Notes: generated by a model from the letters alone, not told the origin. 64,000 bases of DNA from an uncultured Fibrobacteraceae bacterium (GCA_964343835.1 CAYFKR010000019.1:3952-67951), one strand, 5' to 3'; positions 15,475 through 28,918 are shown, counted from the stretch's first letter. A program made the numbers and translations.

Positions 15475-16265
15475 CGCGACGCATCTTCATCATCACGGCC
15501 CTGGCCGCGGCCCTGTTCGGCATGACGCCGGTCCTGGCGACGTCCGCCGCCGAGGCCGAGGACGCCGGCCTGCGTCCCGTTCCCTTCGGCCCCGGCGAGG
15601 AGCTGGTCTTCGACATCAGCTACGGGGTGATCCATGCGGGCGAGGCGTCGCTGAAGGTGCGCGGCATCGTGGATTCCGACGGCCATGAATGCTTCCACGT
15701 GGAGAGCACGGCCCGCTCCAACCGCTTCTTCTCCACCCTCTACAAGGTGCGCGACAAGGTGGTCTCGCACTTCGAGACCGGCACGCTCCACAGCCACTAC
15801 TTCTCCAAGCGGATCCACGAGGGCGACTACCGCAAGAACGTGCAGGTGAGGTTCGACCAGGAAGCCCACGTGGCCCGCTACAAGGACGGCAAGGAGCGCG
15901 AGATCCAGCCGGCCTGCCACGACATCCTGGCCGCCTTCTACGTGGTGCGCACGCTGCCGCTGATCCCCGGCGAGCCGACCCACGTCAAGACCCACAGCTC
16001 GCGCAAGAACTACGACCTAGAGGTGATCGTGCACGGGCGTGAGACCATCGAGGTCCCCGCCGGCACCTTCGAGTGCCTCAAGGTGGAGCCGGTGATCCAG
16101 GGGGAGGGGCTCTTCCAGTTCGAGGGGCGCATCACCATCTGGCTCACCGACGACGAGCGCCGCCTGCCCGTGCTCATGAAGACCAAGGTCAAGATCGGGG
16201 CCGTGGACGCCGCCCTGAAGTCGTTCGCTGCCGTGGAGCCCTGGCGACCCCGGGAGTCGCCGTGA
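15471..16265 (+). CDS. Secreted DUF3108-family protein
   Basis: ATGA overlap at 15471. Signal peptide MTRRIFIITALAAALFGMTPVLATSAAEA. LVFDISYGVIHAGEASLKV...STLYKVRD...S.F...T...H.F.K..HEG and the ...TIWLTDDERRLPVLMKTKVKIGAV pattern are typical of DUF3108. Confidence 0.7.
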   Translation: MTRRIFIITALAAALFGMTPVLATSAAEAEDAGLRPVPFGPGEELVFDISYGVIHAGEASLKVRGIVDSDGHECFHVESTARSNRFFSTLYKVRDKVVSHFETGTLHSHYFSKRIHEGDYRKNVQVRFDQEAHVARYKDGKEREIQPACHDILAAFYVVRTLPLIPGEPTHVKTHSSRKNYDLEVIVHGRETIEVPAGTFECLKVEPVIQGEGLFQFEGRITIWLTDDERRLPVLMKTKVKIGAVDAALKSFAAVEPWRPRESP

Positions 16266-17857
16266 GCCGGCCCGGTCGTGAACGCGGCGGCTGGTTGCCG
16301 CCCTCGGAATGGCTGGGCGTGCCGTCGGACTCCCCCCGGACGACGGTGCTGGCGCTGGCCACGGTGCTGGCGCTGCTGCTGAGGCTGGTGTACCTGGGAC
16401 GGCATCCCCTCTGGATCGACGAGTACCTCACGTGGACCTTCCTGCATCCCGACGGCGGGGCCGGTTTCGCTGAACAGGTCATGGACGTGTTCCAGACCCC
16501 CCTGACCATCGCCGTGCTGTGGCCCCTGTCCAGGGGCGAGTGCTCCGAGTGGCTGCTGCGTCTGCCGTCGGCCCTGGCGGGGACCGCCGCGGTGCCGGTG
16601 GGCGCCCTGGTCGCCGCCCGTTTCGGCGGCCGCCGCACGGGCGAATGGGCGGCCCTGCTGCTGGCCCTCAGCCCCTTCCTCGTGTGGTTCAGCCAGGACG
16701 CCAGGGGCTACGCCTTCCAGATCCTGCTGACGGCGGCGGCGACGCTCCAGCTCCTGCGCATGATGCGGGAGGGGCCGACGACCGGCGGCGCGGTGGTCTA
16801 CGGCTGCCTGGCCGGCCTCGGCGTCCTCGCCAACAACTCCACCGTCTTCCTGGTGGCCGCCCAGGGGTTGTCGGTGGTCCTGCTGGCGACTCCCCGTGAC
16901 CGCGGGGGATGGCTGCGCTGGGCCGCGGCCTTCGGCCTGGCCGCACTGGTGGGCCTGCCCTGGCTGCTGCGGGCGGCGGGCATCCTGGAGGTGGGCCGTC
17001 TCGCCCCCGGAGCCGAGACCGGCCCGGCCCTGCGCCACGAGCCCGGCTTCACGCCCTGGGCCTGGCCCTTCACCGCCCACACCCTCGTCTACGGCTTCAG
17101 CCTGGGGCCGAGCCTGGAGGAACTGCGCTCGCCGGACCGGCTGCAGGTGGTGACGTCGTGGCTGCCGCTGCTGGCTCCGGCGGCCGCGGTGGCCGGTTTC
17201 CTGGTGCTGGGCGGTCTGAGCCGCCTCCCGCGACGATCGGCCGTGGCGGCCGTGATCTGGATCCTGGTGCCGCTGATGGCCGTCTCGTTCCTGGCGATGC
17301 GCAACGTGAAATCCTACAACCCGCGCTATCTCGCCATGATCCTGCCCGTGGTGACGATGCTGGCGGCCCACGGCGCGGCCCGGCTGCGCTACGGTCGGAT
17401 CGCCGGCGGCACCCTGCTGGTGCTGGTGCTCGTGTCCCTCGGCGGGTACCATGGCGCCGACCGTTACGCCCGGGAGGACCTGCGGGCCGCGGCGCGGATC
17501 GTGGAACAGGACGCCCGCTCCGGCGACGTGATCCTGGCGCCGCTGATCAGCGGCCTGCTCGGCCACTATCACCAGGGCCCCGGGACCATCAAGAGTTTCT
17601 GGGACTGTCCGAAGATCACCTCCGGGGAACAGGCACGCGAGGCGCTGCGCACGAGGATCGGCGACGCCGACCGGGCCTGGCTGGTGCTCAACCGGTCGCG
17701 CAACATCGACCCGGGGGACCGGCTGCCGGCAGCGCTGGAGGAACTGGGGACCGTCGTGGAGCACCGCGAGGTCCCGGGCGTCCGCCTTTACGCCTGGCGG
17801 GCGGGACGAGCGGCCCCGTCGGAAACGGATCGACCCGAGGAGAACCCGCGACGATGA
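16262..17857 (+). CDS. Polytopic membrane glycosyltransferase of the ArnT/PMT type (GT39/GT83-like, uses a lipid-linked sugar donor)
   Basis: GTGA overlap at 16262. About 12 hydrophobic segments precede a soluble C-terminal domain. The N-terminal LLLRLVYLGRHPLWIDEYLTW motif is like ArnT-family enzymes. Confidence 0.7.
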   Translation: MSRPGRERGGWLPPSEWLGVPSDSPRTTVLALATVLALLLRLVYLGRHPLWIDEYLTWTFLHPDGGAGFAEQVMDVFQTPLTIAVLWPLSRGECSEWLLRLPSALAGTAAVPVGALVAARFGGRRTGEWAALLLALSPFLVWFSQDARGYAFQILLTAAATLQLLRMMREGPTTGGAVVYGCLAGLGVLANNSTVFLVAAQGLSVVLLATPRDRGGWLRWAAAFGLAALVGLPWLLRAAGILEVGRLAPGAETGPALRHEPGFTPWAWPFTAHTLVYGFSLGPSLEELRSPDRLQVVTSWLPLLAPAAAVAGFLVLGGLSRLPRRSAVAAVIWILVPLMAVSFLAMRNVKSYNPRYLAMILPVVTMLAAHGAARLRYGRIAGGTLLVLVLVSLGGYHGADRYAREDLRAAARIVEQDARSGDVILAPLISGLLGHYHQGPGTIKSFWDCPKITSGEQAREALRTRIGDADRAWLVLNRSRNIDPGDRLPAALEELGTVVEHREVPGVRLYAWRAGRAAPSETDRPEENPRR

Positions 17858-18555
17858 CCCGGAAGGGCCACACCACCTGCGCCTTCGCCGACCACGGCGG
17901 ATACGACGCCTTCATCGGCACCGACCCTGAGGGGCCGGTGCCCGGCCGCAGTCGCCTCTACGACGCCGTCAAACGGCTCATCGACATCGGCGGCGCCACG
18001 GTCGGCCTGCTCCTGCTCATGCCCCTCTATCCGTTCCTGGTCCTGCTCATCAAGCTGGACTCCCCGGGGCCCCTCTACTTCCGTCAGCGTCGGGTGGGTG
18101 AGGACGGCCGATTCTTCGACTGCTACAAGTTCCGCTCCATGGTGGTGGACGCCGAGGCGCGCAAGGGCGAACTGGCCCACATGAACGAGGCGTCGGGGGC
18201 TGCGTTCAAGATTCGCCGGGACCCGCGCATCACCGGTGTCGGACGCTTCATCCGCAGCAGCAGCCTGGACGAGTTCCCCCAGCTCTTCAACGTGCTCAAG
18301 GGGGACATGAGCATCGTCGGGCCCCGGCCGCAGATCCCGTCCGAGGTGGCGGAGTACACGCCCCGCCAGGCCCGCCGCCTCCAGGTCAAACCCGGCCTGA
18401 CCTGCCTGTGGCAGGTGTCGGGACGCAGCCAGCTCGACTTCGAGGAGTGGATGAACCTGGACCTCGAATACGTGCGGCGGCGCAGCCTCGGCTTCGACCT
18501 CTGGATCCTCTCGCGGACCATTCCCGCGGTCATCGAGCGCAAGGGGGCGTACTGA
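17854..18555 (+). CDS. Polyprenyl-phosphate sugar-phosphate transferase (bacterial sugar transferase, WbaP/EpsL C-terminal type)
   Basis: ATGA overlap at 17854. YKFRSM, DPRITGVGRFIRSSSLDEFPQLFNVLKGDMSIVGPRP, GLTCLWQVSGRS. Confidence 0.85.
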   Translation: MTRKGHTTCAFADHGGYDAFIGTDPEGPVPGRSRLYDAVKRLIDIGGATVGLLLLMPLYPFLVLLIKLDSPGPLYFRQRRVGEDGRFFDCYKFRSMVVDAEARKGELAHMNEASGAAFKIRRDPRITGVGRFIRSSSLDEFPQLFNVLKGDMSIVGPRPQIPSEVAEYTPRQARRLQVKPGLTCLWQVSGRSQLDFEEWMNLDLEYVRRRSLGFDLWILSRTIPAVIERKGAY

Positions 18556-18926
18556 TGCGCGGCCTCGGCGTGGACGTGGTCTCGGTGGAACGCATCGCCG
18601 GCGCCCTGGATCGGCACGGCGACCGGTTCCTGACGCGCTGCTTCCGCGAGGGCGAGATCGAGGTCCACCGGAGGCGGGGGAGGGCCGGCGTCCAGGCCCT
18701 GGCCGCCCGCTGGGCCGCCAAGGAGGCGTTCGTGAAGGCCGTGGGCGCCGCCGCCGGCGTGTTCGGCTATCGCGACGTGGAAGTGGTGTCCGGGGAATCC
18801 GGCGCCCCAACCCTCCGGCTCCACGGGGCGGCCGGCGAGGCCCTGGCCGCCACCGGCGGCGACCGCGTGATGGTGAGCCTCAGCCACGAGCGCGACGCGG
18901 CCGTGGCCGTGGTCGTGATCCCCTGA
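18555..18926 (+). CDS. acpS: Holo-[acyl-carrier-protein] synthase (4'-phosphopantetheinyl transferase)
   Basis: ATG 18555 shares one nt with the upstream TGA. GVDVVSVERI, ARWAAKEAFVKA, SLSHERDAAVAVVV. Confidence 0.85.
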   Translation: MRGLGVDVVSVERIAGALDRHGDRFLTRCFREGEIEVHRRRGRAGVQALAARWAAKEAFVKAVGAAAGVFGYRDVEVVSGESGAPTLRLHGAAGEALAATGGDRVMVSLSHERDAAVAVVVIP

Positions 18927-18942
18927 CGGCCCGACGATCCTC

Positions 18943-18971
18943 TTGCCCCTGCGGCGTCCGATCGCTACACT
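18943..18971 (+). promoter_or_regulatory. Candidate sigma70-type promoter for the phzF-like gene, ACAD and membrane cassette unit
   Basis: TTGCCC (18943-18948), 17-nt spacer, TACACT (18966-18971). Confidence 0.3.
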
Positions 18972-19013: not shown

Positions 19014-19943
19014 TTGGTCCGACGCGATTACCTGTTGCTGGACGTCTTCACCGACGTACCCTTCGGGGGCAGCCGTCTCGCGCTGTTCCCCGACGGACGC
19101 GGCCTCTCCACCGGCATGATGCAGATCATCGCCCGGGAGATGGGCACGGGCGAGACGGCCTTCGTCTTTCCCGACGACGACGCCTCCGCCCGCCCCGGCC
19201 TGCGCATCTTCACGCCCTCCGCGGAGATCCCCCACTCGGGCCTGTCCCTGGTGGGCGCCACCGCGGCCCTGGACAGGCGCGGCGACCTCGTGCGTGCCGG
19301 CGGCGAGACCCACGTCACCTGGAAGACCGAGGCCGGCCTGTTCCCCGTGGTCGTGGGCGACCCCGGTTCAGGCCCCCTCTATTCCCTCGTGCTCGAGCCC
19401 GCCGAGTTCATCGGCGAGTACTACCAGCGGGGGAAGGTGGCCCGGGCCCTCGGCCTGCCCGAGCAGGAGATCGCCATCACCGGCCTGCCCTGTGAGATCG
19501 TCTCGACGGGGCTGCCCATCCACATCGTCCCGGTCGGGTCGCTGGACGCGGTGCGCGCCATCCGCCTGAGCCGGTCGTCCGCGGCGGCCATCGTCAAGGA
19601 CCTGGGCTTCGGCGACCTCTTCGTCTTCACCTGCGAGACCGAGGGCGAGGACGCCGACGTCCACTGCCGCATGTTCGCCCACGACTTCGGCATTCCCGAG
19701 GACGCCGCCACCGGTTCCGCCTGCGGCTCGCTCATCGCCTACATGGTCAAGCATCGCCTGGTGCGCCGCGAACCCCGCGTGCGCATCGTCTGCGAGCAGG
19801 GCCTGGAGATGGGCCGCCCGAGCCGCCTGGTCGTGGAGGCCGACGTCTCCGACGACCGCGTCCGCTCCATCCGCGTGGGCGGCACCTGCGTGACCGTGGG
19901 CGAGGGACGACTCGAATTCGACGCCGACGCCGTCGTCGGCTGA
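19014..19943 (+). CDS. PhzF-family isomerase-like protein
   Basis: LLDVFTDVPFGGSRLALF, GETAFVF, EDAATGSACGSLIAYM. TTG start as in the track (uncertain). Confidence 0.8.
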   Translation: MVRRDYLLLDVFTDVPFGGSRLALFPDGRGLSTGMMQIIAREMGTGETAFVFPDDDASARPGLRIFTPSAEIPHSGLSLVGATAALDRRGDLVRAGGETHVTWKTEAGLFPVVVGDPGSGPLYSLVLEPAEFIGEYYQRGKVARALGLPEQEIAITGLPCEIVSTGLPIHIVPVGSLDAVRAIRLSRSSAAAIVKDLGFGDLFVFTCETEGEDADVHCRMFAHDFGIPEDAATGSACGSLIAYMVKHRLVRREPRVRIVCEQGLEMGRPSRLVVEADVSDDRVRSIRVGGTCVTVGEGRLEFDADAVVG

Positions 19944-19987
19944 ACCCTGAACCGACAACGACAGCACTGCTGACTCCCGGAGGAGCC

Positions 19988-21631
19988 ATGACCCAGACCG
20001 CCGGCCTGACCCCCGAAATGCGCGAGATGATGGTCCAGACCATGAAGCAGGTCGTCCAGCGCGACCTGCCCGACGCCGAGCTCCTCGGCCTGGACGAGCG
20101 CGACGAGTTCCCCGCGGAGTTCATCAAGGAGCTCCTGTCGCCCAACGTGGGGCTGCACCTTGTCTTCCTGCCCGAGTCGGTGGGCGGCCTGGGCGGCGGC
20201 GCCCTGGACATCTGCGAGGTCTCCATGGAGATGGCGGCCATGGACCTGGGCGTGGCCACGGCCTTCCTGGCCATCTGCCTGGGCACCGATCCCATCGTCG
20301 TCGGCGGCACCGACGAGCAGAAGGCCCACTGGCTGGGGCGCATCGCCTCAGAGGGCCTGATCGTGGCCTATGGCGTCACCGAGCCCGCCGCCGGCAGCAA
20401 CGTGGCCTCGCTGCAGACCGTCGCCGAGCGCATCTGCGACGACGACGGCAACGTGACCCACTACCGCCTCAACGGCACCAAGCAGTTCATCACCAACGGC
20501 AGCGTGGCCCAGCTCTACACCATCCTGGCCAAGACGCCCGACGGCCCCACGTTCTTCATCGTCGAGAGCGACGCCGAAGGCCTGCAGGCCGGCAAGCACG
20601 AGGACAAGCACGGCATCCGCGCCAGCGATACCGCGGGCGTGATCCTGGAGGACGTGGTCGTGCCCGTGGACCAGCTCATCGGCGGCGTGGAGGGCCAGGG
20701 CCTGAAGCAGGCCAACGAGGTCTTCGGCTACACGCGCCTGATGGTGGGCGCCTTCGGCCTGGGCTGCGGACGCGACGCCATGCGCCGCGCCGTGCGCTAC
20801 GCCGGCGAGCGCATCCAGTTCGGCTCGCCCCTGATCGAGAAGGAAGGCTACGCCGCCAAGCTGCTCAGCTCCCACTGGGTGGACCTGGAGGCAGGCCGCT
20901 CCTACATGGAGGCCGTGGCCGATCGGCTGGACTCGGGGGAGAAGGATCTGCAGGTGGAGGGCTCGGTGGCCAAGCTGTGGTGCACCGAGGCCGGCAACCG
21001 CGCCGCCGACGCCGCCATCCAGGCCCTCGGCGGCTACGGCTACGCCCGCGAGTACATGGTGGAGAAGATCCGGCGCGACGTGCGCATCACCACCATCTAC
21101 GAAGGCACCAGCGAGATCCAGCAGTCCATCATCGGGCTCTATCGCTGGAAGGCAACCGTCCGCTCGAAGGGCGGCTTCTACGAGGAGATGGCCGCGAAGG
21201 TCGACGCCGCCCACGCCGCGAACGCGGACCTCTGCGGCGACCTCATGGCCGCCGCCATCCGCGACCTCAACGCCGTCATCCAGCACGTCCACGGCAAGCG
21301 CATCGCCAGCCGGCAGGCCGTGCAGTTCCTGCTGGCGGACATGATGACCGTGTGCGAGGTGGGCGCTGCCTACGTGGAGCGCACCGCCGCCGCGGCCGAC
21401 GCCGCCGCGCAGGCTCCCCTGGTTCGCGCCTTCGTGCGCCGGGCCCTGGCCGACATGCGCCGCGGCGCCGTGCAGTGCGTGATGGGCTACGCCGACGTGG
21501 ACGACGCCGACGCCCTGGCCGAGGCCCGCACCTTCCTGGACGGTCTGGTCACCGCCGACCCCGTGGCCACCGATGCCGGCCGCCTGGCCGACCTGGGCGC
21601 CGTGACCGAGACCCTGAAGGCCATGGCCTGA
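19988..21631 (+). CDS. Acyl-CoA dehydrogenase family protein with a roughly 165-aa C-terminal extension
   Basis: GGAGGAG RBS. YGVTEPAAGSNVASL, FITNG, GYGYAREYMVEKIRRDVRITTIYEGTSEIQ. An additional helical Ala-rich domain follows. Confidence 0.85.
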   Translation: MTQTAGLTPEMREMMVQTMKQVVQRDLPDAELLGLDERDEFPAEFIKELLSPNVGLHLVFLPESVGGLGGGALDICEVSMEMAAMDLGVATAFLAICLGTDPIVVGGTDEQKAHWLGRIASEGLIVAYGVTEPAAGSNVASLQTVAERICDDDGNVTHYRLNGTKQFITNGSVAQLYTILAKTPDGPTFFIVESDAEGLQAGKHEDKHGIRASDTAGVILEDVVVPVDQLIGGVEGQGLKQANEVFGYTRLMVGAFGLGCGRDAMRRAVRYAGERIQFGSPLIEKEGYAAKLLSSHWVDLEAGRSYMEAVADRLDSGEKDLQVEGSVAKLWCTEAGNRAADAAIQALGGYGYAREYMVEKIRRDVRITTIYEGTSEIQQSIIGLYRWKATVRSKGGFYEEMAAKVDAAHAANADLCGDLMAAAIRDLNAVIQHVHGKRIASRQAVQFLLADMMTVCEVGAAYVERTAAAADAAAQAPLVRAFVRRALADMRRGAVQCVMGYADVDDADALAEARTFLDGLVTADPVATDAGRLADLGAVTETLKAMA

Positions 21632-21936
21632 TGACCGTCCCGGCCACGACACGGTCCGATATCGGGGACGGGACGGGCGATTCGCCCGCCCCGTCCGCCG
21701 AGGACCGTTTCGCGGTTTCCCTCCGCCGGCGCGGCCTGGCCGCGCCGGCCCTCCTCTGGGGCGCCGCCCTGCGCCCCCTTTCCTTCGTCGGCGGCCAGAC
21801 CCTGCGGCTCGCCGCCCCCCTCTGGTCCCTCTTCGACGACGGCGACGGGCTGCAGGACGCCGTGGACGTCCTGGAGGACCGCCGCCGGTTCGACCGCTTC
21901 CTTGACCTCCTCGAGAACGGGGAGGCCGCTCCGTGA
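21631..21936 (+). CDS. Hypothetical small protein (P1, 101 aa) with one hydrophobic segment
   Basis: ATG 21631 shares one nt with the ACAD stop. Third-codon positions are almost all G/C, as in neighbouring real genes. I recognise no family. Confidence 0.5.
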   Translation: MTVPATTRSDIGDGTGDSPAPSAEDRFAVSLRRRGLAAPALLWGAALRPLSFVGGQTLRLAAPLWSLFDDGDGLQDAVDVLEDRRRFDRFLDLLENGEAAP

Positions 21937-22742
21937 CCCCCGCAACCGCCACCGTCTGGAACGTCGCCCTGTTCACGGCCCTGCTGCTGGGGCTCGTGGT
22001 CTGGAGCGTGCGTCGAGTCCGTTCGGGGCGGCCGGTGGAGGTCCGTTCCCTGCGCGGCGTCCGGGCCGTCTTCGAGGCCGTGGAGCAGGCCGCCGCGTCC
22101 GGCCGCCCGGTGCTGTTCGTGACCGGCGTGCGCGACCTGGACAACATGCAGACCGTGGCCGGCCTCGCCATCCTCGAACCCGTGGCGCGGACCTGCGCCG
22201 AGCAGGGCGTCGAGCTGCTCGTTCCGGTGAACCGCAGCCTGGTGATGGAGGAGGCCCGCGCGGCCTGCAGGCGCGGTTTCGCCTCGGCGGGGCGCGAACA
22301 CGCCTGGGACGACGACAACGTGACCTACATCTCCGACGACCAGCTGGGGTTCGTGGCCCGGGTCGACGGCATGATCGCCCGGGAGCGGCCGGGCGCCTGC
22401 TTCTTCTTCGGCTTCTTCGCCTCGGAGTCGCTGCTCCTGGCCGAGGGGGGGCGCCAGGTGGGCGCCGTCCAGGTGGCCGGGACCGCCAGCCCGGTGCAGC
22501 TGCCGTTCTTCGTCGCCGCCTGCGACCACACCCTGATGGGCGAGGAGCTCTTCGCCGCCGGGGCCTCCATGTCCGGCGACTCGGCCCTGCTCGGCAGTCT
22601 GCGGGGGCAGGACCTCGGTCGCATGGTGGCGGTGGGCCTGATCCTGGCGGGCACCGTCGTGGCCACCCTGGTCGCCATGGCGCCGTGGCCCTGGGCCGCC
22701 GCCCTCCGCGACGCCCTGGGCGTCCTGCTGGAGACGAGGTGA
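21933..22742 (+). CDS. Hypothetical bitopic membrane protein (P2): N-terminal TM, soluble domain of about 190 aa, C-terminal TM
   Basis: GTGA overlap at 21933. TM segments VWNVALFTALLLGLVVWSV and MVAVGLILAGTVVATLVAMAPW. I recognise no family. Confidence 0.6.
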   Translation: MTPATATVWNVALFTALLLGLVVWSVRRVRSGRPVEVRSLRGVRAVFEAVEQAAASGRPVLFVTGVRDLDNMQTVAGLAILEPVARTCAEQGVELLVPVNRSLVMEEARAACRRGFASAGREHAWDDDNVTYISDDQLGFVARVDGMIARERPGACFFFGFFASESLLLAEGGRQVGAVQVAGTASPVQLPFFVAACDHTLMGEELFAAGASMSGDSALLGSLRGQDLGRMVAVGLILAGTVVATLVAMAPWPWAAALRDALGVLLETR

Positions 22743-22746
22743 GGCC

Positions 22747-23427
22747 GTGAAGCGTCCGACGCCACAGCATCTGCTCGCCGTGGTGGCCGTGGTGCTGCTG
22801 CTGGCAGCCTTCGTGGCCCCGCCCGGGGCCGGGACCTCTGACGGCATCGCAGCCCCCTTCGCGTGGGCCGACCGGCACTTCTCCTCGTGGTTCGGCATCC
22901 TGGCCGTCTTCGCCTTTTTGCTCGGGGGCATCAGCCTGGTGCGGAGCCACGGCAGGCGCGTGCTGGAGCGAGGAGCGGACTGGGGCTACTCCGCCGTGAC
23001 CCTCGTCGCCTTCGCCGTGGTCCTGGTGGTCGGCATGTTCAAGCTGGGAGGCGCGCCCGGCCTGACCGGCGACCCCACCGCCGCCGACAGCTGGCTGACG
23101 AAGGTCTTCGAGGCCGTCCTCAGCCCCCTCCACGCCACCATGTATTCGTTGCTGGCCTTCTACGTGGCCTCGGCGTCGTACCGTGCGTTCCGGGCCCACG
23201 GCGTCGAGACGGCCGTGCTGCTGATCGCGGCCCTGGCCGTGCTGGTCGGACGGTTGCCCGCGGCGGTGATCCCGCTGCGTCTGGAGGACCTGGGCCTGTG
23301 GATCCTGACGGTCCCCAACACGGCGGGGCAGCGTGCGCTGATGATCGGCATCGCCCTGGGTGTGGCGGCCCTCGCCGTGCGCATGGTGATGGGACTGGAG
23401 CGGGGACGGGGAGGGGACGGCTCGTGA
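22747..23427 (+). CDS. Hypothetical polytopic membrane protein (P3, about 6 TM)
   Basis: GTG 22747 lies 4 nt after the P2 stop. There are six hydrophobic stretches, for example WFGILAVFAFLLGGISLV and ALMIGIALGVAALAVRMVMGL. Confidence 0.6.
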   Translation: MKRPTPQHLLAVVAVVLLLAAFVAPPGAGTSDGIAAPFAWADRHFSSWFGILAVFAFLLGGISLVRSHGRRVLERGADWGYSAVTLVAFAVVLVVGMFKLGGAPGLTGDPTAADSWLTKVFEAVLSPLHATMYSLLAFYVASASYRAFRAHGVETAVLLIAALAVLVGRLPAAVIPLRLEDLGLWILTVPNTAGQRALMIGIALGVAALAVRMVMGLERGRGGDGS

Positions 23428-24284
23428 AGACCCGACTCGGAGCCCTGGAGCGGATCGACCGGCGCTGGATCTACCTGATCCTGGCGGCGGCCGTGGTGGC
23501 TGCGGTCCTGGCGCGGCCGGTGTTCCGCGACCGGCCCGGGAAGCTGTCGCAGCCCGTCTTCGACCTCGTGGAATCGCTGCCGCCCGGCACGCCCATGCTG
23601 CTCTCCCTGGACTACTCGCCCAGTTCCGCCCCGGAGCTGGAACCCGTGGCCGAGGCCCTCGCGCGCCACGCCCTGATCCGCGGCCTGCCCCTGTGCACCA
23701 TGTCGCTGTGGCCCACGGGCAACCACATGGCCCAGCGCCTCGCGTCCAACGTCATCGAGCCTGAGTTCCCCGATGCCGTGCAGGGCCGTGACTGGGTCTC
23801 CCTCGGTTTCCAGGCCGGGGGTGAATTGCTGGTGCATGCGCTGGTCGATTCCCTCGGCTCGCGCTACGCCACCGACGTGCGGGGAGTACCGCTGGACTCC
23901 CTGCCGGCCCTGGCGGGCGTCGAGAACCTGGGCGGGTTCGGACTCGTCATGAGCCTTTCGGCCGGTACGCCGGGACTCAAGGAATGGGTCCTGTACGGCG
24001 GGGACGTGGGCGGATTCGCCCTCGCCGGCGCCTGCACCGGCGTCGGGGCGCCCCAGTTCTTCCCGTACTACCCGCGCCAGGTCTTCGGACTGCTGGCGGC
24101 CCTCAAGGGCGGGGCCGAGTACGAGGCCGCCCTGACCGCGCGCTACCCCGACCGCGTGCCGCCGGTGATGCGCGCCACCCGCGGCATGGGCCCCCAGACG
24201 GCGGCCCACCTGGTGATCGTGGCCTTCGTGGTGCTGGGCAACGCCGGTCTGCTGATCCGCCGCCTGAAGGGAGGCGGGTCATGA
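23424..24284 (+). CDS. Hypothetical bitopic membrane protein (P4), same architecture as P2 and a possible distant paralogue
   Basis: GTGA overlap at 23424. TM segments WIYLILAAAVVAAVLA and AAHLVIVAFVVLGNAGLLI. Similarity to P2 is by eye: VFDLVE..GTPMLL, ELEPVAEALA, AGACTGVGAPQFFPYYP. Confidence 0.6.
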   Translation: MKTRLGALERIDRRWIYLILAAAVVAAVLARPVFRDRPGKLSQPVFDLVESLPPGTPMLLSLDYSPSSAPELEPVAEALARHALIRGLPLCTMSLWPTGNHMAQRLASNVIEPEFPDAVQGRDWVSLGFQAGGELLVHALVDSLGSRYATDVRGVPLDSLPALAGVENLGGFGLVMSLSAGTPGLKEWVLYGGDVGGFALAGACTGVGAPQFFPYYPRQVFGLLAALKGGAEYEAALTARYPDRVPPVMRATRGMGPQTAAHLVIVAFVVLGNAGLLIRRLKGGGS

Positions 24285-24976
24285 TCGTCCCCTGCGCCGT
24301 GAGTCACGACCTCGAGATCTGGGTGGGCGCGCTGCTGACGCTGATGGTCTTCTCGTTCCTGTGGCGGGACAATCCCTTCTACAAGTTCGCGGAGCATGTC
24401 TTCGTCGGGGCGTCGGCGGCCTACTGGATGGTCATCGGCTTCTGGACCACGCTCTGGCCGCGGGTGGTGGTGCCCCTGATGCCCGAGGCCCAGCGGGTCG
24501 TCCGACCCGATGCGCCCCTTCCCGAACGCGACCTGACGGCCCTGGTGCCCGCCCTGCTCGGCCTGCTGATGCTCACACGCCTGATTCCGAGGGTGTCGTC
24601 GTGGGCGCGCTGGCCCACGGCCTTCGTGCTGGGGACCACGGCAGGGTACGCCGTCGTCCGCTACGTAAGGTCGGACTTCGTCTTCCAGATCCGTGCGGCG
24701 ATCGGAGAGGGGCTGCTGCTGCGCGCCCCTGACGGAGGCTGGGACGTGGGTGCGTCCCTGTCGGCCGTGGTGATCCTGGCGGGTACCGTGTGCGGCCTGG
24801 TGTACTTCATGAACACCCGTCGCGGGGGCTCGGTGAGCGGGCCTGCCGCGCGCATCGGCCTGCTGGTGCTCATGGTGACCTTCGGCGCCTCGTTCGGCTC
24901 CGCGGTCATGGCCCGCATCAGCCTGCTCGTCGGCCGGCTCCAGATGCTGCTGGGCGATTGGCTCGGCCTGATCTGA
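24281..24976 (+). CDS. Hypothetical polytopic membrane protein (P5, about 6 TM)
   Basis: ATGA overlap at 24281. Hydrophobic stretches include IWVGALLTLMVFSFLW, HVFVGASAAYWMVIGFWTTLW and IGLLVLMVTFGASFGSAVMA. Confidence 0.6.
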   Translation: MIVPCAVSHDLEIWVGALLTLMVFSFLWRDNPFYKFAEHVFVGASAAYWMVIGFWTTLWPRVVVPLMPEAQRVVRPDAPLPERDLTALVPALLGLLMLTRLIPRVSSWARWPTAFVLGTTAGYAVVRYVRSDFVFQIRAAIGEGLLLRAPDGGWDVGASLSAVVILAGTVCGLVYFMNTRRGGSVSGPAARIGLLVLMVTFGASFGSAVMARISLLVGRLQMLLGDWLGLI

Positions 24977-24985
24977 GCAACCGCC

Positions 24986-25015
24986 TTGACGCCCGGCGGT
25001 CCGGTTCCCTAGACT
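24986..25015 (+). promoter_or_regulatory. Candidate sigma70-type promoter for the TPR gene and aroQ
   Basis: TTGACG (24986-24991), 18-nt spacer, TAGACT (25010-25015). Confidence 0.3.
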
Positions 25016-25082: not shown

Positions 25083-25796
25083 TTGAATTTCGACCGACAG
25101 ATCCGCTACTTCGAGATGCAGGACCAGCGCGTGCCCGACGCCCGCTTCTGGTTGCCCCTGGCCGACCTCCACCGCCGCAACGGGGACCCCGAGATCGCCC
25201 TGCGCGTGGTGCAGGAGGGCATGGCCGGCCGCGCCGCCGGCGCCGCCGCCCACTGGGTGCTGGCCTGCACCCTGCGCGACCTGGGCCGTCTGGACGAGGC
25301 GCGACGCGAAGCCGCAGCGGTCCTCGAGCTCGACCCCGCCCATCGGGGAGCCCCTGGTCTCCTGGCCCTCGAGGATCCGGTCGTCGAGGCCCCCGAGGTG
25401 ACTCCGGACGATGCGGCCGAGGAGACGGCGCAGGAGCTCGAAGAACCCGCCGCCGCGGAACAGGCAGAGCCGGCTCCCGCCCCGGAGCCCGCACCCCCCG
25501 TGCCCGAGACGACCGCCGCCGGCGAGTCCGGCCGCGGCGTGTTCGTGACCCGCACCCTGGCCGACATCTACCTCTCCCAGGGGCACCAGGACAAGGCCCT
25601 GGACATCCTCTACAAGGTCCTCGAGCAGCATCCGGAGCGGGAGGACATCGTGGCCCAGATCGCCGCCGTGGAGGCGAGCTCCGGCCGCGACGGCGATGCG
25701 GCCCGGCCGGCACGCCGCCCCGACGCGGCCCGCGACGAGGCCAACCGGGAGCGCTTCGACGCCTGGCTCGAGCGCGAGGCCGGGGGAGAGTCGTGA
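25083..25796 (+). CDS. Tetratricopeptide-repeat protein with an acidic Pro/Ala/Glu-rich linker
   Basis: TPR-like helices LPLADLHRRNGDPEIALRVVQEG, LACTLRDLGRLDEARREAAAVLELDP and LADIYLSQGHQDKALDILYKVLEQHP. The start is uncertain (TTG 25083 or ATG 25116). Confidence 0.55.
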   Translation: MNFDRQIRYFEMQDQRVPDARFWLPLADLHRRNGDPEIALRVVQEGMAGRAAGAAAHWVLACTLRDLGRLDEARREAAAVLELDPAHRGAPGLLALEDPVVEAPEVTPDDAAEETAQELEEPAAAEQAEPAPAPEPAPPVPETTAAGESGRGVFVTRTLADIYLSQGHQDKALDILYKVLEQHPEREDIVAQIAAVEASSGRDGDAARPARRPDAARDEANRERFDAWLEREAGGES

Positions 25797-26239
25797 GCCG
25801 GGTCATCCACGTGCTCAACGGGCCCAACCTGGACCGCCTCGGGGTACGCGAGCCGGAGGTCTACGGCTCGACCACCTACGACGACCTGGTCGGCGACCTC
25901 CTGGCCGCAGCCGGGGAGACCGGCGTCGACCTCCACTGCCGACAGACGGCGGGCGAGGGCGAGCTGGTCACCTGGATCCACGAAGCCGACGCCGAGGCTG
26001 ACGGCCTGATCCTCAACGCCGCCGCCTACACCCACACGTCGGTGGCCGTGCGCGACGCCCTGCTGTCGGTCTCGATCCCCGTGATCGAGGTCCACATCTC
26101 CAACCCCCACGCCCGCGAGGACTTCCGCCGCACGAACCTCATTTCCGACACCGTGGCCGCCACGGTCCAGGGGTTCGGTGTCCGCGGCTACCGCATGGCC
26201 CTCCAGGGCCTCCTGGGCCTACTCGACGACGCCGGCTGA
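25793..26239 (+). CDS. aroQ: Type II 3-dehydroquinate dehydratase
   Basis: GTGA overlap. VLNGPNLDRLGVREPEVYG, NAAAYTHTSVAVRDA, EVHISNPHAREDFR. Confidence 0.9.
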   Translation: MSRVIHVLNGPNLDRLGVREPEVYGSTTYDDLVGDLLAAAGETGVDLHCRQTAGEGELVTWIHEADAEADGLILNAAAYTHTSVAVRDALLSVSIPVIEVHISNPHAREDFRRTNLISDTVAATVQGFGVRGYRMALQGLLGLLDDAG

Positions 26240-26255
26240 GGACCCACCGCCCCGA

Positions 26256-26284
26256 TTGCTTTTCCGGAGCCTCCATGTTATCAA
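26256..26284 (+). promoter_or_regulatory. Candidate sigma70-type promoter for efp-accB-accC
   Basis: TTGCTT (26256-26261), 17-nt spacer, TATCAA (26279-26284). Confidence 0.3.
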
Positions 26285-26340
26285 TGGGGGCGATCCAGAC
26301 CACCACACGGCCCCTCGCCGGGCCCACAAGGAGACGAGAG

Positions 26341-26898
26341 TTGGCCGATACCAGCGACTTCCGCACCGGCATGGTGATCAACCACAAGAGCAATCTGTGG
26401 TCCATCGTCGAGTTCCAGCACGTGAAGCCGGGCAAGGGCCCCGCCTTCGTGCGCACCAAGCTCAAGCAGGTCGAGAGCGGCAAGGTGGTCGAGGAGACCT
26501 TCCGCGCCGGGGAGAAGATCGAGGAGATCCGCCTCGAACGGCGCGACTACCAGTTCCTCTACAAGGACGGCGAATTCCTCACCTTCATGAGCATGGAGAC
26601 CTACGAGCAGATCTCCCTGCCCGCCGACACCATGGAGGACCTGACGAAGTACGTGAAGGAGAGCGAGACCGTCAGCATGCTCCTGCGCGACGGCAACCCC
26701 CTGATCGTGGAACCCCCCGTGAACGTGGAACTGACGGTGACCCAGACCGACCCCGGCCTGCGCGGCGACACCGCCCAGGGCGGCACCAAGCCGGCCACCA
26801 TGGAGACCGGCCTGGTGGTCCAGGTTCCGCTGTTCATCGAGGAGGGGGAGGTCCTGAAGATCGACACCCGTACGGGCAAGTACCTGGGCCGCGTCTGA
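26341..26898 (+). CDS. efp: Translation elongation factor P
   Basis: TTG 26341 lies 7 nt after AAGGAG and gives the canonical length of about 185 aa. [36 protein letters not shown]. Confidence 0.9.
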
Positions 26899-26920
26899 GG
26901 CGGCCCCGACGGAAAGGCAC

Positions 26921-27400
26921 ATGATGGACATCGCGAAGGTCCGCGAACTGGTCGAGCTGGTCGAGAACAGCAAGATCGGCGAGCTCGAGATCACGAGCAA
27001 GGACGCCACCATCCGCATCCAGAAGACCGCAGCCACCGAGACCGTCGTGACGGTCCCGGCCGCTGCGGTCGCCGCCGCTCCCGTTCCCGCTCCGGCCGCC
27101 GCGCCGGCGCCCGAGGCCGCTCCCGCGGCCGCCGCGGCTCCGTCGCCCGAGCGGGCCAAGTGGAAGGAGCTGCGGTCGCCCATCGTGGGCACCCTGTACC
27201 GGGCCCCGTCGCCGGAATCCCCGAACTTCGTGAACGTGGGTGACACGGTCACGGTTGGCCAGACCCTCTGCATCATCGAGGCCATGAAGGTGATGAACGA
27301 GATCGAGGCCGAGTTCGCCGGTACGGTGAAGGAGATCCTGGTGGAGAACGGCTCGCCCGTGGAGGCGGAGGCCGTGATCTTCCTGATCGACCCCTCCTGA
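26921..27400 (+). CDS. accB: Acetyl-CoA carboxylase biotin carboxyl carrier protein
   Basis: Ala/Pro linker and the biotinyl-lysine motif [15 protein letters not shown]. Confidence 0.9.
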
Positions 27401-27419
27401 CCCAGGCCCGCACGCCCCG

Positions 27420-27445
27420 GACGCTCCTCCCCTCGGAGGAGCGTC
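27420..27445 (+). promoter_or_regulatory. Perfect 11-bp hairpin between accB and accC (attenuator, processing or stabiliser candidate, with no U-tract)
   Basis: GACGCTCCTCC (27420-27430), loop CCTC, GGAGGAGCGTC (27435-27445). Confidence 0.4.
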
Positions 27446-27523
27446 TGCCGTGAATCCAACCTCCGCTTGCCTCGGACGCCGGGAACGGGGACAATGGATC
27501 CCCCGATGGCCGACAACAGGGAG

Positions 27524-28892
<1,369 letters not shown>

Positions 28893-28918
<26 letters not shown>

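Follow-up and report, generated by a model that had tools for sequence, protein, structure and literature searches.

A conserved four-protein membrane module, usually encoded with a GlmL/MutL-like ATPase, and its reduced form in an uncultured bacterium

A stretch of 64,000 nucleotides from an uncultured Fibrobacteraceae bacterium (GCA_964343835.1, CAYFKR010000019.1:3952-67951; this whole stretch is hereafter called the window) carries five tightly packed genes, designated as P1–P5 together with their products, directly behind the gene for a long acyl-CoA dehydrogenase (ACAD). We found that P2–P5 are a co-inherited, physically linked membrane module, which is usually encoded with an ATPase of the ASKHA fold and its partners, and that the window holds a reduced, lineage-specific form of this system, consisting of P1 and the module, which belongs to a sub-clade of Krumholzibacteriota. 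An initial annotation of this DNA had taken the unit to be all five genes attached to the ACAD gene. The comparison described here redraws that unit: the core is P2–P5, P1 normally precedes the ATPase gene, and the adjacency to ACAD is specific to Krumholzibacteriota. We tentatively propose, with a probability of about 0.5 for the statement as a whole, that the module is a hetero-oligomeric inner-membrane machine for translocation or group transfer that is normally coupled to ATP. The five genes are arranged as follows.

21631-21936, + strand: P1, 101 aa
21933-22742, + strand: P2, 269 aa, DUF6754 protein
22747-23427, + strand: P3, 226 aa, six transmembrane (TM) segments
23424-24284, + strand: P4, 286 aa
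24281-24976, + strand: P5, 231 aa, six TM segments

Results

Conservation of the P2–P5 module

A scan of one genome per species with P2 gave at least 586 confirmed relatives, and 80 loci were kept for the comparison of gene neighbourhoods. The module is defined here operationally as adjacent homologues of P2, P3, P4 and P5 on one strand and in that order. Homologues of the four proteins are present in 80, 79, 76 and 74 of the 80 loci, respectively, always in the same order and on one strand. In the window, all four family hidden Markov models (HMMs) match in this order, with E values of 2e-76 to 7e-109. Represented among the 80 loci are Zixibacteria, Ignavibacteria, Gemmatimonadota, Eisenbacteria, Krumholzibacteriota, WOR-3, Fermentibacteria, Cloacimonadota, Marinimicrobia and Planctomycetota, the last with Gimesia, Singulisphaera and Phycisphaera among others. 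When the scan was repeated with the partner ATPase described below as the seed, the matches listed added Nitrospira (one of its genomes being from RefSeq), Latescibacterota, Elusimicrobia, Methylomirabilis and Armatimonadota, and the same P2–P5 order is found in most of these loci too. P2–P5 are a conserved core with a fixed gene order over more than 10 phyla.

Natural fusions of P4 and P5, about 580-600 aa long, occur in the representative library (P0253, P0254 and P0262), which indicates physical association within the module. Clustering of the neighbouring genes revealed no further partner shared across phyla; its sole addition, found in Planctomycetota, was a protein designated P0. P0 is a two-TM protein encoded upstream of P1 in 11 loci, mostly of Planctomycetota (for example L046:3070-3615). 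In the Krumholzibacteriota locus L001 (4091-4990) the P0 region forms the N-terminal part of the P1 open reading frame (ORF), and it is absent from the window.

The seven-gene operon

The usual layout comprises seven genes: P1, an ASKHA ATPase resembling GlmL/MutL, X381 (named here for its length of about 380 aa), and P2-P3-P4-P5. The P1 homologue and P2 are about 3.5 kb apart in most genomes, P1 being upstream, and the ATPase and X381 genes occupy the space between them; the seven-gene operon also occurs in Nitrospira, Latescibacterota, Elusimicrobia, Methylomirabilis, Armatimonadota and Planctomycetota. The ATPase (about 610 aa) has the phosphate motifs of the ASKHA fold and matches Pfam MutL (PF13941) at 9.5e-129. 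The N-terminus of X381 matches the barrel-sandwich families Biotin_lipoyl, RnfC_N and NQRA_N in 21, 19 and 8 of 30 members, respectively, and its C-terminus is KOW-like. Given that P1 is encoded just before the ATPase, and in L026 and L034 in one stop-to-stop open frame with it, P1 is probably an adaptor for the GlmL-like ATPase, as judged from gene arrangement.

The ATPase shares its fold and family signature with the GlmL/MutL accessory proteins (PF13941, TIGR01319), but it differs from them in several respects. Relatives' ATPases score below every NCBIfam cut-off for GlmL (239 vs 475, 210 vs 600 and 173 vs 204), and they have an additional domain of about 120 aa at the C-terminus. GlmL belongs to B12-dependent glutamate mutase and ornithine degradation, whereas in the Gimesia and Nitrospira loci inspected the module ATPase is never beside mutase genes. 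A literature search on GlmL, and on glutamate mutase together with Nitrospira, found nothing relevant.

The ATPase set and the module can be separated. In about one-third of the loci, the upstream sequence available contains neither an ATPase nor an X381 gene. A full seven-gene operon (L165) and a lone P2–P5 module (L030) reside on different contigs of the same assembly, JAOZOU01, and two different WOR-3 genomes exemplify P1-ATPase-X381 without a module (L107) and a module without the ATPase set (L049). In Zixibacteria and Ignavibacteria, three or four complete copies of P2-P3-P4-P5 stand in tandem, and a single ATPase-X381 pair lies in front of them where upstream sequence is available. Tandem modules were seen at L006, L009, L016, L022, L024, L025, L032, L042, L050, L053, L072 and L076; by P2 distance, the third tandem copies cluster with the Nitrospira/Latescibacterota type.

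In many Armatimonadota, a gene closely related to that of the ATPase (47-50% identity) stands by itself, with no other gene of the system within 6 kb (L102, L103, L105, L110, L115, L117, L145 and L147), and at L110 this lone gene adjoins a zinc-type alcohol-dehydrogenase-like gene. In Elusimicrobia, a gene for a 736-aa PMT_2-type (GT-C) glycosyltransferase is inserted between X381 and P2 (L113:9091-11301; also L109 and L119). In the lineage of the window, a PMT_2 gene is located three genes upstream of ACAD (window ~16073-17857).

Reduced form of the system in the window

Searches by tblastn and HMM found neither an ATPase gene nor an X381 gene anywhere in the 64-kb window. The P1 stop codon overlaps the P2 start codon, so no ATPase gene lies between them, and of P1, ATPase and X381 only P1 is present. 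The same compact layout is repeated in a contig from an independent sample that is 99% identical to the window, in relatives with 66% P2 identity, and in at least 10 further species-level Krumholzibacteriota genomes. This recurrence shows that the layout is not an assembly artefact. Across the compact clade, identities are 58-80% for P2–P5 and 47-51% for P1. Other Krumholzibacteriota have the full operon within the same context, with PhzF-family and ACAD genes on one side and a TPR gene on the other.

Among the loci inspected, it is only in Krumholzibacteriota that the system is flanked by the PhzF gene, the long ACAD gene and the downstream TPR gene. The ACADs beside P2 in WOR-3 and Stahlbacteria are shorter and encoded on the opposite strand, and those of WOR-3 are not clearly orthologous; the Nitrospira and Gimesia neighbourhoods contain unrelated genes and no ACAD. 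ACAD is a lineage-specific neighbour outside the conserved system. The neighbourhood survey proposed with the initial annotation thus gives a divided answer: P2–P5 travel together, but ACAD does not travel with them beyond this lineage.

Family assignment of the proteins

P2 belongs over its full length to Pfam DUF6754 (PF20539), which it matches at 1.1e-83 and 280.7 bits against a cut-off of 27; its residues 9-247 align to profile positions 11-249 of 257. DUF6754 is a family of unknown function, a catalogue entry that covers one of the four module proteins. P1, P3, P4 and P5 have no match in Pfam or NCBIfam scans. The description of all five as unassignable thus holds for these four and fails for P2, and even there the profile searches that had been suggested lead to a family of unknown function. 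Scans of the Gimesia versions against Pfam and NCBIfam added no further family for P1–P5, and member-by-member Pfam scans of P3 (31 members) and P5 (30 members) at E up to 5 returned noise with no consistent match.

The families themselves are large. Searching with P2 brought up 672 homologues, of which those listed are 43-67% identical and are annotated at source as 'hypothetical' or 'fibronectin type III domain-containing'. A profile search with P4 in 1.84 billion proteins gave 4,901 cluster representatives at the 50% identity level (3,576 at E<=1e-10), and no Pfam model covers this family despite its approximately 4,900 representatives. Among named sources, Candidatus Krumholzibacteria are the nearest, which places the window in that phylum of the Fibrobacteres–Chlorobi–Bacteroidetes (FCB) group. 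P1 is 39-51% identical to its Krumholzibacteriota homologues; its family HMM matches the window copy at E=4e-27, and the conserved motif RPLxFxGxQ is retained there.

Conserved positions were found in each module protein. P3 has the motifs ATMFxLLAFxxASAxYRAFRA and AGQRAIxIGxALG, and P5 has SFLYKDNPFYKFAEH and FGASFGYTVMARISLLxGR. Invariant polar residues of P2 are R38, D68, Q73, T74, R101, Y132, R150, E171, Q189, C197, E204, E205 and D227. In P4 they comprise E232, Y233 and E234, plus Q258, H262 and N273 in its second TM segment, which is polar and conserved (MGPQxxAH...GN).

The annotation had also proposed an undescribed, co-conserved membrane system, and this proposal was upheld by the joint inheritance of P2–P5 across phyla and by the searches against characterised families, structures, defence models and papers, none of which gave a match. 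Sequence and profile searches of the PDB with P2, P4, X381 and the ATPase returned only FN3 domains, from the N-terminal extensions of P2, and a weak KOW match. PADLOC defence models gave no match at E up to 0.1 for P1–P5, the ATPase or X381; besides this, the stable synteny with housekeeping genes argues against a role in anti-phage defence. No paper on DUF6754, PF20539 or PF13941 was found in the searchable library.

Three candidate cofactor assignments were rejected. A cobalamin-binding domain in P2 was dismissed on the grounds that it has no DxHxxG motif and that no B12-domain structure was among the Foldseek matches; ApbE-type flavinylation was dismissed for want of such sites, and haem or Fe-S ligation because no such ligands are conserved.

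Membrane topology

By hydropathy analysis, P2 and P4 each have a soluble part of about 200 aa between one N-terminal and one C-terminal TM segment, and P3 and P5 have about six such segments apiece, in agreement with the layouts read earlier by eye. P1, which had been credited with one hydrophobic segment, has a moderately hydrophobic stretch that falls below the TM threshold used.

P2 is predicted to have its N-terminus outside, followed by a TM segment, a highly conserved Rossmann-like domain in the cytoplasm, a second TM segment and an outside C-terminus. The number of lysine plus arginine residues (K+R) is 5.7 in the flanks vs 0.5 in the N-terminal tail, and many P2 homologues are extended N-terminally by a signal peptide and an FN3 domain. 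For P3, both termini are predicted to be inside; mean K+R numbers are 2.2, 4.5 and 2.1 in the even loops vs 0.5, 0.9 and 0.8 in the odd loops. Loop 3 of P3, predicted to be periplasmic, contains an insertion of about 370-390 aa in two P3 variants (L024:12719-14497 and L013:4176-6017); the insertion is an FG-GAP beta-propeller in L024 and an unassigned domain in L013.

P4 is predicted, with moderate support from K+R, to have both termini inside and its Rossmann-like alpha/beta domain in the periplasm, into which a CARDB domain is inserted in one variant. The N-terminus of P5 is probably outside, again with moderate K+R support. All three P4-P5 fusions contain exactly one extra TM segment in the linker, which implies that the P4 C-terminus and the P5 N-terminus are on opposite faces of the membrane. 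Domains of extracytoplasmic type (FN3, FG-GAP and CARDB) occur only at positions predicted to be periplasmic. Taken together, P2+P3 and P4+P5 look like two units inserted oppositely, with the P2 and P4 domains on opposite faces.

Structural models and possible paralogy

AlphaFold2 models of P2 and P4 have pLDDT (predicted local distance difference test) values of 92.4 and 92.8 and share the same order of elements: a TM helix, six beta-alpha units forming a Rossmann-like sandwich, and a TM helix. Three motif pairs that had been aligned by eye as a sign of distant P2/P4 paralogy map to equivalent elements in the two models. Nonetheless, the paralogy is not significant at the sequence level (BLASTP E=0.67; hhalign probability 0.9-2.8%), and the stretches aligned by hhalign comprise only one TM helix and part of the N-terminal FN3 extension. 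The companion idea of a duplicated P3/P5 pair found no support either, being non-significant by BLASTP (E=8.3) and by profile-profile comparison; hhalign probabilities for both pairs together are 0.3-2.8%. The shared fold order of the models makes an ancient duplication of P2 and P4 possible but unproven. If it happened, the copies are now predicted to be oppositely oriented in the membrane.

Foldseek comparison with the PDB gave no match below 1e-3 for the P2 model, only generic Rossmann-like structures, and a weak likeness of the P4 model to half of a GT-B glycosyltransferase (TM-score ~0.33); all TM-scores for the two models were 0.44 or less. In the models of both proteins the invariant polar residues cluster after beta-strands. 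The ligand site of alpha/beta folds is usually located there, and the clustering in these models suggests that P2 and P4 bind ligands or carry out catalysis, each on its own side of the membrane.

Features of the locus

The window has a G+C content of about 70%, and the following features surround P1–P5.

19014-19943, + strand: PhzF-family isomerase-like gene (PF02567 at 2e-47; TIGR00654)
19988-21631, + strand: long ACAD, 547 aa, translationally coupled to P1, with Pfam Acyl-CoA_dh N, M and C domains
24986-25015, + strand: match to the sigma-70-like promoter consensus, after P5 and ahead of the TPR gene (consensus scan)
25083-25796, + strand: TPR-repeat protein gene downstream of P5 (Pfam scan)

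The five ORFs on the + strand and their junctions were reproduced from the sequence as first described. The ACAD stop and the P1 start have one base in common (TGATG, 21629-21633). P1 and P2 overlap by GTGA at 21933, P2 and P3 are separated by a 4-nt gap (TGA-GGCC-GTG; 22743-22746), and P3/P4 and P4/P5 overlap by GTGA at 23424 and ATGA at 24281, respectively. The coding-like third positions were likewise recovered, with a GC fraction of 0.91-0.96 in all of P1–P5 vs about 0.5 at second positions. All five are genuine genes, as each has homologues kept across many genomes. In accordance with the earlier statement that Walker and Cys/His redox or haem motifs are lacking, a motif scan of P1–P5 returned no instance of Walker A, CxxC or CxxCH.

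The P1 frame is open for about 1.7 kb further upstream (window 19951-21933, + strand), across the ACAD gene in another frame, which is an effect of high GC. Homology to P1 starts only at about 21625, and this supports the ATG at 21631 as the P1 start. Two promoter-like elements had been taken to bracket the PhzF-like gene, ACAD and P1–P5 as one unit; the one at 24986 was reproduced (TTGACG-18-TAGACT, 9/12 positions, vs 0.1 such sites in shuffled sequence), but the consensus scan did not recover the one at 18943. Three terminator-like hairpins lie within P1 and P2 (21758-21777, 22376-22395 and 22492-22505); with 1.3 expected in shuffled sequence (standard deviation 1.3), they are probably due to chance.

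The upstream flank (window 16073-18926) encodes a PMT_2-like membrane glycosyltransferase, a Bac_transf sugar transferase and a 4'-phosphopantetheinyl transferase, and the downstream flank (window 25793-28918) encodes a type II dehydroquinase, EF-P, AccB and AccC. Both flanks are syntenic in relatives, which places the cassette among housekeeping and envelope genes.

Discussion

In the machine that we propose, the predicted P2–P5 assembly would have about 16 TM helices and would move a substrate, or hand a chemical group, across the cytoplasmic membrane. The alpha/beta domains of P2 and P4 would provide the cytoplasmic and periplasmic ligand or catalytic sites, and the P3/P5 pair would form the path through the bilayer; membrane pathways are commonly built from two six-helix proteins in inverted orientation. 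ATP hydrolysis by the GlmL-like ATPase would drive or prime the step, with P1 serving as a tether. P1, the ATPase and X381 would then be three cytoplasmic or membrane-associated partners, one set of which can precede up to four tandem modules. In the window organism, the ATPase may be supplied from another locus, or the module may run without it.

That the step is specifically an ATP-driven translocation is a more tentative idea. Equally speculative is the broader suggestion that the module, P1, the ASKHA ATPase and X381 make up an unrecognised class of ATP-coupled membrane machine, in which the core would consist of two opposed units, P2+P3 and P4+P5, with ligand-binding alpha/beta domains at either face of the cytoplasmic membrane. 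Its range would extend from Planctomycetota and Nitrospira to the FCB phyla; it would be the first transporter or translocase powered by an ASKHA-fold instead of a P-loop ATPase, and the window would hold a natural version whose module is genetically uncoupled from the ATPase. We regard the system as real, undescribed and of a new kind; P3, P5 and X381 were compared at the level of sequence, and a remote tie to a known transporter class is possible.

Several points weigh against the proposed translocation or group-transfer machine. The Pfam and NCBIfam scans assigned none of the components to a known transporter or enzyme family, and the alignments of P3 and P5 show few conserved charged residues inside the membrane. 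The ATPase is not nearby in many loci, the window included, and its coupling to the module is deduced from gene neighbourhood only. The orientations of P4 and P5, moreover, are only moderately supported.

The system could be devoted to lipid-carrier envelope modification, with P2 loading a group, P3/P5 flipping the carrier and P4 passing the group to an envelope acceptor. Such a pathway would narrow down the machine proposed above rather than compete with it, and we consider it rather unlikely. The GT-B likeness of the P4 domain, the PMT_2 gene within the operon of three Elusimicrobia genomes, the PMT_2, Bac_transf and GT9 genes just upstream in the lineage of the window, and the periplasmic FN3, FG-GAP and CARDB additions, which point to contact with the envelope, are all consistent with it. 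However, the Foldseek matches are generic Rossmann-like structures at TM-scores of about 0.33, P2 and P4 have no glycosyltransferase motif or Pfam match, the association with PMT_2 is confined to two lineages, and the roles of the ATPase and X381 are left unexplained. The analogy in layout is with ArnC/ArnEF/ArnT and GtrA/GtrB/GtrC, which combine a tethered cytoplasmic alpha/beta domain, small polytopic partners and a step that faces the periplasm. The module resembles these lipid-carrier systems by analogy, and GT-C genes lie nearby in two lineages, but P2–P5 have no homology to the GT-A, SMR and GT-C families. A redox or ion pump like Na+-NQR/Rnf, in which X381 would correspond to NqrA/RnfC, P3/P5 to NqrD/NqrE and P2/P4 to NqrF/NqrC, is very improbable, although the likeness extends from the barrel-sandwich matches at the X381 N-terminus to the number and sizes of the subunits: two opposed six-helix proteins (about 230 aa here, about 200-230 aa in the comparison) that resemble NqrD/E, and anchored single-domain subunits on each face. 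At E up to 5, neither the Rnf-Nqr family nor any family that binds FMN, Fe-S or NAD(P) matched P3 (n=31) or P5 (n=30); sequence relation, redox cofactor motifs, conserved cysteine pairs, haem motifs and an NqrB/RnfD counterpart are all missing, and the partner enzyme is an ASKHA ATPase instead of a dehydrogenase.

Two further explanations start from the window itself. An accessory role in fatty-acid or acyl-CoA metabolism, for example as an anchor or as a route by which the substrate of ACAD is taken up or exported, would account for the overlap of the ACAD stop with the P1 start and for the order PhzF-ACAD-P1, which is held throughout Krumholzibacteriota down to 52% P2 identity; ACAD genes also stand beside P2 in WOR-3 and Stahlbacteria. 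We judge it improbable, as the system has no ACAD in its vicinity in Planctomycetota, Nitrospira, Zixibacteria, Ignavibacteria, Latescibacterota and others, the WOR-3 genes are short, lie on the opposite strand and are not clearly orthologous, and ACADs are so abundant that chance adjacency in two lineages is plausible. That the window copy is a decaying remnant, left after loss of the ATPase and X381 genes, is very improbable. Two partner genes conserved elsewhere are indeed missing from the whole window, as is the P0-like N-terminal part of L001, but none of the five ORFs is disrupted and their coding signature is strong, the compact layout has been kept in at least 10 species-level genomes at the identities given above, the P1 family motif is retained, and stand-alone modules are common in other phyla.

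If the P2–P5 machine is ATP-coupled as we propose, its organisation would invite comparison with ABC and ECF importers, in which one energising gene set likewise serves several membrane modules, in tandem or at other loci. The difference is that the system has no ABC ATPase, Walker A motif or EcfT/S-like proteins, and the putative energiser has an ASKHA fold; no ABC genes were present in the conserved operons inspected.

The conservation of P2 (43-67% identity among the listed proteins), the fixed gene order over more than 10 phyla and the thousands of P4 representatives make a basic envelope or membrane function likely. The carriers include nitrite-oxidising Nitrospira, Planctomycetota and many uncultured lineages of the FCB group, and genetics is feasible in some of them. 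The natural variants, namely the compact form, tandem triplications, P4-P5 fusions and split loci, are ready comparisons for examining how the parts depend on one another. If the GlmL-like ATPase does drive the module, this would be a new role for a family known only as an accessory of B12-dependent mutases, and would represent a new way of energising a membrane process.

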